Source: Methanocaldococcus indicus (GTDB lineage Archaea; AGJL01; Methanococci; Methanococcales; Methanocaldococcaceae). From it: DNA of 64,000 bases. The notes beneath the pieces are model-generated. The model ran no database searches. It was not told where the DNA came from and saw only the letters and a program-made list of their open reading frames with translations. The position numbers and the translations under genes were made by a program. The DNA is taken from positions 1,350,294-1,414,293 of the forward strand of contig NZ_CP186926.1 in assembly GCF_049554935.1 (NCBI RefSeq), read 5' to 3'. This document shows positions 27,437 to 30,461 of this stretch, one piece after another (position 1 is the first letter of the stretch; each line of letters opens with the position of its first letter).

Positions 27437-28571
27437 TTAATTTACCTTTTAGAATATTTTCTATATATTTCTTAAAACCTTCAACTTCTCTAATAACATC
27501 ATCTATTAAGTTGTGTGGTTTTTCATTTTCAATTGCCTTATTTTTAGCATTTTTTAAAGAAAGTAACATACTATTTAACTTTCCTAAAATCTCTAAGCAT
27601 TTTCTATACTCTATTCCTCCTAAACCTAATCTATCTTTATCTATCTTTTTAAACTCACTAACTAAGTTATCTAATATCTCTCTCTGCTCTAATGCAAAGC
27701 CCTCATAATGGTTAGATATCTTAAATACTTCCACAGAAACTTTAAAGAACTCATCTGGCTCATTCCAAAATATATGCCTTAATATATCTAAATCATTTAC
27801 ATCTGCTTTATCCTTCCCATTTAAATAAGCATAACTCTTAACTGCCTTAACTGATTTCTTTAATCTCCTATCTGATATAGTTATACCTTCATTTTCTAAT
27901 GCAAATTTTATATTTATTATATCTTTTTTAATTGATGAGATATCAACTTTTTCAACTTCTTTTTGTAAGTTTTTTAGCTCATCTATTGACATTTTTGTTT
28001 TTGGTTTATATTCCTCACTCAAATCTAACAATTTCATTAAGTCATCAAATGCCTTTATATTCCTTACAACCTTCCTAAATAGGAATCTATCATAGAAAGC
28101 TAAGAGTTCATTCTCTTCAGGAAGTTCATTAGATGCTGAGAACAAACTTATTAATGGAACTTTCTCTATCCTATCTCCATTGTGATATATCCTCTCATTT
28201 ATTATTGTTAATAGTGAGTTTAATATTGAACTATTTGCCTTAAACACTTCATCTAAAAACGCTATCTCGGCTGTCGGTAGATAATTATCTGTTTTCCTTA
28301 CAAACCTATCGTTATCTTTCAATTCTTTAATACTTAAAGGTCCAAATAACTCATCTTCAGTTGTAAATCTTGTTATTAGTTTTTCAAAATATTTAGCGTT
28401 GAAGTGAGAAGAGATAGCTCTAATTAATTGAGATTTAGCAGTTCCTGGATTACCTAAAAAAATAGTGTGCTCACTACATAATAAAGATGTCAATGCTATA
28501 TCTATCTCTTCCCTCCTCTCTATAAAATAGTTATTCAACTCTTCCCTTATCTTTTGTAACATAAATATCAA
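27429..28571 (-). CDS. MoxR-family AAA+ ATPase (RavA-like)
   Basis: [31 protein letters not shown] and ISDRR motifs. Confidence 0.9.
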
Positions 28572-29119
28572 CTCTTTTTAAATTTTAAAAATTCTTTAAA
28601 TTTCTCAAATGCTTTTTTTCTATGAGATATTTTACTCTTCTCTTCAACTCCCAACTCTGCAAAAGTTTTATTGTATCCTTTTGGTATAAAAATAGGGTCA
28701 TAACCAAATCCTTCTGTTCCTCTCTCCTCAATAGAAACTTTACCATCAACTTTTCCAATAAATAGCTTTACTCCAAACTCATCACAATAACCTATAACTG
28801 ATTTAAAATAAGCTTCTCTATCATCTACATCTTCTAACAATTTCAAAATTCCTTTATTTCCAATAGTTTCATATACAAATTTTGAGTATGTCCCAGGAAA
28901 ACCTTTTAATGCCTTAACAAAAAAGCCACTATCTTCCACAATAACAGGTTTTTTTAATTTTTCATAAACATATCTTGCTCCAAACTCAGCAACTTCCTCC
29001 AAACTACCCTGTATCTCAGGATACTCTATTTTTATTTGCTCAACTTCAAACTCATCTCCTAAAATAATTTTTGCTTCTTTAACTTTGTTAATATTTCCAG
29101 TTGCAAAGTATATTTTTAT
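28568..29119 (-). CDS. rdgB: XTP/dITP diphosphatase (RdgB/HAM1), with apparent ATA start
   Basis: [12 protein letters not shown] and SHR motifs; the frame extends 39 codons beyond the track start (29002) to ATA-AAA-ATA-TAC-TTT-GCA-ACT-GGA-AAT (xKIYFATGN) behind AGGTGA. Confidence 0.92.
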
Positions 29120-29149: not shown

Positions 29150-29222
29150 TGTCCCCCCAGTTTAACACACTCCCATCATCCAACAGCTTAGCTATGTCAG
29201 GGAGGCTAACCCACTGGGGGGA
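29150..29222 (-). ncRNA. Single-hairpin H/ACA pseudouridylation guide sRNA
   Basis: UCCCCCCAGU/ACUGGGGGGA basal stem, internal loop GGGUUAGC/UGUGUUAA, CUCCC/GGGAG stem, CUGA...AUGAUG K-turn, apical stem, 3' ACA; GC-rich island in an AT-rich genome. Confidence 0.88.
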
Positions 29223-29234
29223 TTATATTATATA

Positions 29235-30461
29235 TTATAATAACTTCTTAAATATAAGCTCATCTTTTTTATAAACAAATGTATTATCTTCAATATCTCT
29301 ATCTATTAAACAACTTGCACCTATCCAGCAGTTGTTTCCTATCTTTACTCCTGGCATAAAAGAAACTTGTATTCCTGTTTTTACATTATCTCCCATAATA
29401 ACTCCTAATTTTCTTACACTCTCAACTCTTTTACCCTTTATATTTACTTTAACTGGTTTGTTATCAAATCTTAAATTTGCAGTTATTGTATTACATCCAA
29501 AATTACAATTCTCTCCTACAATACTATCTCCAACATAAGAGAGATGAGGAATTTTTGAATTTTTCATAATAATTGATGATTTTATTTCTGATGAATTTCC
29601 AACAAATACATTCTCCATTAACACAGTATATTCCCTTATATATGCTAATGGTCCAACAACACATCCTCTTTTTATAATAGCTGGACCATAAATAACAGAG
29701 TTCTCTCTAATAATAGCTCCTTCCTCAACAATAACATTCCCTTTAATAACTACATTCTCTCCAATCTCTCCCTTAATCTCTCTTTTAATCTTAGTTAAAA
29801 AATATTTATTTGCATCTAACAAATCCCAAGGCTTTCCAATATCATTCCAATAACCATTTAAAATATATCCTTTGACTTTTTCCTCTTTTATTAAGATTTT
29901 TATAGCATCTGTTAGCTCTTTCTCTCCTCTTTTTGAAATATTTATTTTTTCTAAAATCTCAAAAATCTTTTTATCAAGTTTATAAATTCCTGCATTTATT
30001 AAGTTTGATTTAGGATGTTCGGGTTTTTCTTCTATATCAACAATAAAATTGTTATTATCTAACTCAACTACCCCATAATCTTTGGGATTATTTACTTCTT
30101 TTAGAGCTATTACATATTTATATTTAAATATATCTTTTAAATCATCTTCAAAAGCAATATCTCCATTTATAACTAAAAATTCATCATCAACATAATCCTT
30201 AGCTGTTAAAACAGCTTCTCCTGTACCATCAATTTCTCCTTGCTCTAAAAAAGTGATTTTAGGATGCTCTCTAAAATATTCTATTATCTTATCTTTATTG
30301 TATTTAACAACAATATATATATTATCTACATAATTCTCTATTTTTTCAACTATATGCTGTAAAATAGGTTTTCCAGCTATTGGTAAAAGTGGTTTAGGCC
30401 TATTAACAGTTAAAGGTCTTAATCTTTCCCCTTTCCCTGCTGCTAATATGATAGCATCCAT
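29235..30461 (-). CDS. glmU: Bifunctional sugar-1-phosphate nucleotidylyltransferase/acetyltransferase GlmU
   Basis: LAAGKGERLRPLT..RPKP motif, left-handed beta-helix repeats, PHLSYVGDS. Confidence 0.92.
   Translation of the reverse strand: MDAIILAAGKGERLRPLTVNRPKPLLPIAGKPILQHIVEKIENYVDNIYIVVKYNKDKIIEYFREHPKITFLEQGEIDGTGEAVLTAKDYVDDEFLVINGDIAFEDDLKDIFKYKYVIALKEVNNPKDYGVVELDNNNFIVDIEEKPEHPKSNLINAGIYKLDKKIFEILEKINISKRGEKELTDAIKILIKEEKVKGYILNGYWNDIGKPWDLLDANKYFLTKIKREIKGEIGENVVIKGNVIVEEGAIIRENSVIYGPAIIKRGCVVGPLAYIREYTVLMENVFVGNSSEIKSSIIMKNSKIPHLSYVGDSIVGENCNFGCNTITANLRFDNKPVKVNIKGKRVESVRKLGVIMGDNVKTGIQVSFMPGVKIGNNCWIGASCLIDRDIEDNTFVYKKDELIFKKLL

Follow-up and report, generated by a model that had tools for sequence, protein, structure and literature searches.

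Genomic Setting and Architecture of the Hairpin

The locus lies within a window of 64 kb, the whole stretch of the Methanocaldococcus indicus genome that was analysed, and comprises two protein-coding genes of the same orientation with a hairpin in the spacer between them:

28568..29119, minus strand: RdgB/HAM1 XTP/dITP diphosphatase gene (NF011396, 282.1 bits), starting 30 nt after the ACA box
29150..29222, minus strand: whole single-hairpin box H/ACA RNA including the ACA (sequence, fold, alignment to motif 3 of Rfam HgcG, covariation)
29235..30461, minus strand: archaeal GlmU-type sugar-1-phosphate nucleotidylyltransferase/acetyltransferase gene (TIGR03992, 542.1 bits), with its stop codon 12 nt before the hairpin
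29250..29257, minus strand: possible archaeal TATA-like element CUUAUAUU, ~30 nt upstream of the hairpin and within the 3' end of the glmU-type open reading frame

Both neighbors had been named in the initial annotation of this DNA (glmU upstream and rdgB downstream, on the same strand), and the two profile matches bear out these assignments. The hairpin itself forms a peak in G+C content (0.40-0.41) within an A+T-rich spacer (about 0.2-0.35 around it). The letters of the minus strand at 29150-29222 match the earlier segmentation exactly, down to the terminal ACA at 29152-29150, and read from 5' to 3' as CCCCCCAGU, GGGUUAGC, CUCCC-UGA, a 16-nt apical element, GAUGA-U-GGGAG, UGUGUUAA, ACUGGGGGG, and ACA. 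With guide position p defined as 29223 minus the window coordinate, they can be assigned to the following parts:

29213..29221, minus strand: 5' strand of the lower stem, CCCCCCAGU, pairing with 29153-29161 (8 of 9 pairs changed on both sides, 98.4% of cells paired across the order)
29207..29212, minus strand: 5' guide strand GGGUUA, pairing with UAACCC of 23S helix 69 (invariant in 37/37 hairpins; 6 pairs with 23S 2009-2014)
29200..29206, minus strand: 5' strand of the upper stem, GCCUCCC (5 of 7 pairs changed on both sides)
29197..29199, minus strand: non-bulged strand of the K-turn, U-G-A, forming a U.U followed by sheared G.A and A.G pairs with 29175-29177 (aligned to GA of the Rfam consensus)
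29181..29196, minus strand: apical stem-loop above the K-turn, either the C-stem of a K-turn or a K-loop (closing pair C27-G42 and a 3-bp apical helix mostly kept, 84-100% paired)
29175..29180, minus strand: bulged strand of the K-turn, GAU-GA-U, a box-C-like GAUGA (aligned to GAUGA of the Rfam consensus)
29167..29174, minus strand: 3' strand of the upper stem, GGGAG-U-GU, in which U29169 (position 54) is an extra bulged U
29162..29166, minus strand: 3' guide strand GUUAA, of which GUUA pairs with UAAC of 23S helix 69 (GUUA invariant in 37/37)
29153..29161, minus strand: 3' strand of the lower stem, ACUGGGGGG (covariation)
29150..29152, minus strand: ACA box (ANA), being ACA in 24/37 and AUA in 13/37 hairpins

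The arrangement is that of an archaeal box H/ACA guide. A lower stem, a pocket, and an upper stem are present in the predicted fold, with covariation in both stems, and the ANA box follows directly 3' of the lower stem. The upper stem carries UGA and GAUGA, and its assignment as a K-turn or K-loop, the putative L7Ae site, follows from the known motif. Of the four proteins of such a particle, the genome encodes Cbf5 (533.6 bits), Nop10 (77.5 bits), and L7Ae (102.7 bits), all with scores over their profile cut-offs, while Gar1 is represented by a weak match of 25.4 bits in a 77-aa frame, under its cut-off of 29.3.

Conservation and Covariation across the Order

The single-sequence folding z-score of the hairpin is modest. 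Its predicted fold of -34.4 kcal/mol compares with -23.96 +/- 3.32 kcal/mol for 200 shuffles (z -3.14), 2 of which fold as well as the hairpin, and taken by itself such a value would be compatible with a G+C-rich hairpin that arose by chance in an intergenic spacer. However, orthologues occur in 36 of the 40 genomes of the order that constituted our genome sample, 15 of 20 base pairs have undergone compensatory changes, and the alignment to an Rfam family described below has an E-value of 1.3e-10. The covariation thus already refutes a chance origin, to which we assign practically no probability.

The conservation became apparent at two levels. From the 16 genus genomes BLAST recovered the hairpin in 15, with 77-86% identity, and gave just one weak match, to a flank, among 23 genomes of the sister family, and a covariance model derived from the genus structure was needed to reach the remaining genomes. 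This model matched in 37 of the 40 genomes. The match in one of them (G007) was rejected as an orthologue, being a different hairpin and a paralogue, which leaves 36 genomes and 37 aligned hairpins. The orthologue was not detected in three of the seven genomes of genus g2 (G021-G023) or in G007, which is 86% complete, and a gapped-pattern search of these four genomes produced matches at the control rate only. One genome of the sister family (G025) contains two copies of the motif-3 hairpin at separate places (L056 and L057), one of them nearly identical to the copy of G037.

In the genus alignment (16 sequences) 97.5% of the cells are paired and 11 of 20 pairs have changed on both sides, and in the order alignment (37 hairpins) 95.1% of the cells are paired. 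For neither alignment did any of 500 shuffles reach the observed covariation score. Such shuffle tests are inflated by relatedness among the sequences, but controls in which the structure was slid along the alignment preserve this relatedness and still fail, with only 35-58% (genus) and 34-50% (order) of cells paired. Within the genus alignment the stems change in a compensatory fashion, while the unpaired pocket letters, the UGA (T24 G25 A26), the GAUGA (G43 A44 T45 G46 A47), and the ACA are invariant across the 16 sequences. The architecture that had been read from the letters of this one sequence, namely a lower stem, a pocket, an upper stem with a K-turn, and an ACA of the Cbf5/Nop10/Gar1/L7Ae type, is therefore borne out by fold, covariation, and motif conservation, and what lies on the minus strand at 29150-29222 is a true archaeal guide RNA of the box H/ACA type with a single hairpin.

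Association with rdgB

The rdgB gene follows directly after the hairpin at 15 of 16 loci of the genus and at 2 of 2 loci of genus g5, but at 0 of 11 loci of genus g3, while a glmU-type gene lies upstream only at the M. indicus locus itself among the 30 loci compared. A likely Shine-Dalgarno sequence, GGUGAU, is located between the ACA box and rdgB, and in most relatives a GGUGA ribosome-binding word and a start codon occur within a few tens of bases after the ACA box. In several relatives TTATATA-like words are found 23-30 nt upstream of the hairpin. The hairpin RNA probably has its own promoter just upstream. The initial annotation had suggested processing from a transcript shared with both neighbors; since the adjacency to rdgB is conserved, this is plausible for rdgB, with which the hairpin may share a transcript that starts just before the hairpin.

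This adjacency, together with the proximity of GGUGA and the start codon to the ACA box in most loci, could alternatively indicate that the hairpin acts mainly in cis, as a structure in the 5' leader of the rdgB mRNA that controls stability or translation, the guide role having been lost. However, the most conserved letters are those of the unpaired pocket, the K-turn, and the ANA box, and the stems covary, which is the signature of a trans-acting guide. Moreover, the 11 loci of genus g3 keep the hairpin without rdgB next to it, and a terminator-like site was looked for and none was found. We regard a purely cis-acting role as very improbable.

The rdgB frame of M. indicus opens with ATA at the homologous start position (window 29117-29119, minus strand), where 13 relatives have ATG and one has TTG. 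It is preceded by an in-frame TAA and the GGUGAU, and the NCBIfam profile aligns from residue 2. Either translation starts at ATA, which is rare, or the start codon is damaged or was misread in sequencing.

Relationship to Motif 3 of Pab40/HgcG

A search of Rfam, which had been proposed together with the initial annotation, yielded no match in the 64-kb window at gathering thresholds. When matches were reported by E-value, the hairpin aligned below threshold to motif 3 of HgcG (Pab40; RF00064) with 43.3 bits, as compared to a gathering score of 77, and this match points to 23S helix 69 as the target. Of the 276 model positions 139 are skipped, the alignment being confined to the last hairpin, and GGGUUAGC, GA, GAUGA, GUGUUA, and ACA fall in identical columns. 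The score lies below the at least 77 bits over the whole model that full-length membership in RF00064 takes, and by its sequence the hairpin is an orthologue of motif 3 rather than a full-length member of the family. In 14 named control genomes, M. jannaschii among them, RF00064 had no matches.

Pab40 of Pyrococcus abyssi contains three H/ACA motifs, the third of which guides modification of 23S position 2016 in vitro with '+++', the top activity class (Muller et al., 2008; PMC2377435). Stem-loop 69 has two highly conserved pseudouridines, and position 2016 is one of them; in P. abyssi a pause of the reverse transcriptase prevented its detection in vivo (PMC2377435). For the Thermococcales and Archaeoglobales our comparison relies on the Rfam consensus and on the published work. 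The pocket letters GGGUUAGC ... GUGUUA, the K-turn letters, and the position of the ANA are shared between the hairpin described here, motif 3 of Pab40/Pf7/HgcG (Pyrococcus, Thermococcus), and motif 3 of Afu4 (Archaeoglobus fulgidus), and in Pab40 motif 3 the letter that pairs beside the target U also lies 14 nt from the ANA. The published targets in stem-loop 69 are position 2016 in P. abyssi and L1970 in A. fulgidus (PMC2377435, PMC4652768). The hairpin is thus the stand-alone Methanococcales counterpart (orthologue) of motif 3 of the three-hairpin Pab40/HgcG RNA (Pf7, Afu4).

Several differences accompany this kinship. Motif 3 of Pab40 is the third hairpin of a three-hairpin RNA, whereas the hairpin in the window stands alone. 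The last letter of the 3' guide is C in Pab40 but A or G in the Methanococcales, so that the 3' arm forms 4 rather than 5 pairs with helix 69. In addition, the upper stem contains a bulged U (U54) that Pab40 motif 3 lacks and that among the 37 hairpins is present only in M. indicus and in one other genome (G003).

A second sub-threshold match to RF00064 (45.3 bits, E 2.2e-11) was observed elsewhere in the M. indicus genome, at G000:C1:327544-327770 (minus strand; positions 101-327 of L073), and corresponds to motifs 1 and 2, with an ACA between its hairpins and a CACA at its end. With a separate motif 1+2 match and a lone motif 3, the three-hairpin RNA of the Thermococcales seems, as far as these sequence matches indicate, to be split in this genome into a two-hairpin RNA and the hairpin in the window.

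In M. jannaschii a motif related to Pa40.3 was described that can guide modification of the equivalent 23S position L2015 (Toffano-Nioche et al., 2015; PMC4652768), and we infer that this motif represents the orthologous locus of the hairpin. Compared to L2015 in M. jannaschii, the helix 69 U is found at 2007 here, counted from the Rfam 23S match; the offset of 8 probably results from a different 5' end of the 23S rRNA. Since a related M. jannaschii motif with a helix 69 target is in print, guides of this kind are already known, and the orthologue probably is as well. On the other hand, the bulged U54 that renders a 16S match canonical (see below), the separation from the motif 1+2 locus, and the adjacency to rdgB are undescribed in the literature cited here. 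Because the curated RF00064 model represents the three-hairpin form of the Thermococcales, its gathering threshold misses the hairpin, and stand-alone motif-3 guides across the Methanococcales consequently remain unannotated. As it stands, the finding therefore represents a gain in annotation.

23S Helix 69 as the Probable Main Target

Candidate targets were sought in the 16S and 23S rRNAs of the same genome, with the scans limited to the pocket letters. In the closed form of the hairpin the upper stem comprises G17.U56, C18-G55, the bulged U54, C19-G53 to C23-G49, the U.U, and two G.A pairs, and the pocket consists of GGGUUA and GUUAA. The best site for this form is U2007 of the 23S rRNA, UAAC[U]aUAACCC, with 4+6 Watson-Crick pairs flanking the unpaired UN, in the loop of helix 69, GGGGGUAACUAUAACCCUC. 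We take this U to be the equivalent of E. coli position 1915. The guide letter that pairs beside U2007 lies 14 nt from the ACA, and GGGUUA, GUUA, and the 14-nt distance to the ANA are invariant in all 37 hairpins from the 36 genomes. The helix 69 word GGGTAACTATAACCCTC is likewise exact in 28 of the 40 genomes, that is, in all in which it was found, the other 12 having no match. Moreover, it is in its closed geometry that the hairpin aligns with Pab40 motif 3, which is active. The interactions that worked in P. abyssi placed the target 14-15 nt from the ANA and had a helix H2 of 5-6 bp, while no activity was seen at 17 or 13 nt or when H2 had only 4 bp (PMC2377435); the 14 nt to helix 69 fall within the range derived from that species.

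By analogy to the established archaeal H/ACA RNP, L7Ae would bind the K-turn of the upper stem (UGA/GAUGA), and Cbf5, together with Nop10 and Gar1, would hold the ACA box and the lower stem. Within the pocket, GUUA (3') and GGGUUA (5') are predicted to pair with UAAC and UAACCC of the helix 69 loop. Since this pairing would leave U2007-A2008 unpaired 14 nt from the ACA, Cbf5 would be expected to convert U2007 to pseudouridine. The guide reading is based on sequence, covarying structure, conserved motifs, homology to Pab40 motif 3, exact complementarity to the genome's own helix 69, and the encoded proteins, and from these we infer expression of the hairpin, assembly of the RNP, and modification of the rRNA. 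Overall we estimate a probability of roughly 80% that modification of 23S helix 69 at U2007 is the main function of the hairpin. The pseudouridine that it most likely specifies ranks among the most conserved rRNA modifications.

Several findings count against this assignment. The 3' arm forms only 4 pairs with helix 69, as A61 faces a G where Pyrococcus has a C, and according to Muller et al. it is the 3' arm that matters most (PMC2377435). The computed energies of the two arms are low (-0.6 and -6.4 kcal/mol at 37 C) and near zero at 80 C, and the complementarity of the hairpin to 16S 96-113 is far stronger. Furthermore, G17.U56 and C18-G55 are constant within the genus while the other five pairs of the helix vary, for which the helix 69 reading gives no explanation.

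Two further registers within helix 69, with U2009 or U2003 as the target, were rejected when the pairing was drawn by hand, as the 3' strand cannot pair in either of them. Likewise, 16S 908 and 23S 2331 were discarded as artefacts in which the pairing had run into the lower stem.

An archaeal H/ACA hairpin directed at the helix 69 loop is also known from Haloferax volcanii, where stem-loop 2 of sR-h45 acts on positions 1940 and 1942 (PMC7075261). In that case four target letters (UNUN) stay unpaired, and two U's are modified, 17 and 19 bases from the ACA (PMC7075261). In M. indicus the guide pairs with the UA of the second UN, so that a single modified U would be expected there, unlike for sR-h45.

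16S U103 as an Alternative Candidate Target

The initial annotation had assigned the hairpin to a different site, a U in the 5' domain of the 16S rRNA, on the basis of the segment TAACACGTGGCTAACC. Both 16S genes contain this segment without a mismatch, and no other match with up to 2 mismatches occurs in the genome; a reversed-pattern control gave 0 matches. The predicted U is 16S position 103 when numbering begins where the Rfam 16S match begins. The guide might direct pseudouridylation of U103, alone or besides that of helix 69, with the pocket enlarged by opening G17.U56 and C18-G55 together with the bulged U54. This open form requires G17, C18, U54, G55, and U56 to be free, which on the 5' strand of the upper stem concerns G29206 and C29205. 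UGUGUUA and GGGUUAGC then pair with UAACACG and GCUAACCU, which leaves U103-G104 unpaired 17 nt from the ACA, and the pocket-to-ACA distance of 17 nt given earlier is correct for this pocket.

U103 is by far the best site of the open form in 16S and 23S (UAACACG[U]gGCUAACCU, 7+8 pairs). At 37 C its two arms are computed to contribute -6.4 and -10.7 kcal/mol, and opening the stem costs +2.1 kcal/mol, so that the pairing is much stronger than that with helix 69, and only 4 (2.8%) of 144 stem-compatible fillings of the five extra letters yield such a site. The invariance of G17.U56 and C18-G55 within the genus, among five other pairs that vary, agrees with a role of these letters in pairing to 16S, and the Rfam consensus likewise shows GGGUUAGC and GUGUUA in upper case. 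In addition, a distance of 17 nt is not without precedent, as M. jannaschii proteins and H. volcanii sR-h45 modify targets 17/19 bases from the ACA with the ACA present (Majumder et al., 2020; PMC7075261), and archaeal motifs able to guide up to three sites have been published. Just 20% of the P. abyssi 16S rRNA was probed (PMC2377435), so that the corresponding site there may lie outside the part covered.

However, in P. abyssi a distance of 17 nt or a 4-bp H2 was non-functional (PMC2377435), and the open form departs by 2-3, in both spacing and H2, from the geometry in which the hairpin aligns with the active Pab40 motif 3. Table 1 of Muller et al. gives no 16S target for motif 3 (PMC2377435). 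More importantly, the 16S complementarity is not maintained among relatives. Our comparison comprised 29 hairpins from 28 genomes with a 16S site on record, and a canonical unpaired UN was found in 2 of the 29 only, those of M. indicus and G003 in which U54 is inserted; the remaining 27 either have an unpaired G on each side of the U or have lost the pairing. The 16S site itself has changed in nine genomes. In seven of them (G017-G020, G024, G031, G035) the 5' arm is broken, while G029 and G033 keep it only via a G.U wobble with the guide unchanged, and in G024 and G031 a change of U56 to G breaks the 3' arm as well. Among the 37 hairpins, 34 have U and 3 have G at position 56; at position 17, 29 have G, 4 have A, and 4 have U, and all 37 have C at position 18. 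In summary, the comparison of hairpins and 16S sites indicates that letters needed only for 16S drift, while letters needed for helix 69 stay. Our searches of the literature on HgcG, on Methanococcales H/ACA guides, and on archaeal pseudouridine maps, which were not exhaustive, found no 16S pseudouridine at the U103 site. Hence the complementarity proposed in the initial annotation is exact and thermodynamically the stronger of the two, but as a target U103 is not the best supported one, being canonical in 2/29 hairpins and broken in 7/29, and we consider its modification by this guide in M. indicus unlikely.

The two readings could be reconciled if the inserted U in M. indicus and G003 had turned an old, imperfect 16S complementarity into a canonical UN match, such that one hairpin would serve two sites, 23S helix 69 in its closed form and 16S U103, at a spacing of 17 nt, in its open form. 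Such a dual role is unlikely, and if true, the hairpin would constitute a natural gain of a target by pocket sliding in an archaeal H/ACA guide. While the guide itself, with helix 69 as its main target, is ordinary, the 16S question is cheaply testable, and a strong 16S complementarity that is canonical only with the inserted U offers a cheap and well-defined probe of how strict the spacing of the archaeal H/ACA RNP is.

At the base of the upper stem, C18-G55 (window 29205 and 29168) is invariant in 37/37 hairpins and upper-case in the Thermococcales Rfam consensus, while neighboring pairs covary freely. Across this wider range its invariance is explained by neither the helix 69 nor the 16S reading.

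A further H/ACA-like hairpin was observed at G000:C1:450163-450238 (plus strand; L072), which has a different pocket (UGGCCCACG / CGUCGGAUG), UGA...AAUGA, and an ACA. It is without an Rfam match, and a quick scan for rRNA complements ranked 23S U2331 first, with 7+4 pairs. The structure model matches it with 49.9 bits, and similar second matches are present in most genomes of the genus.
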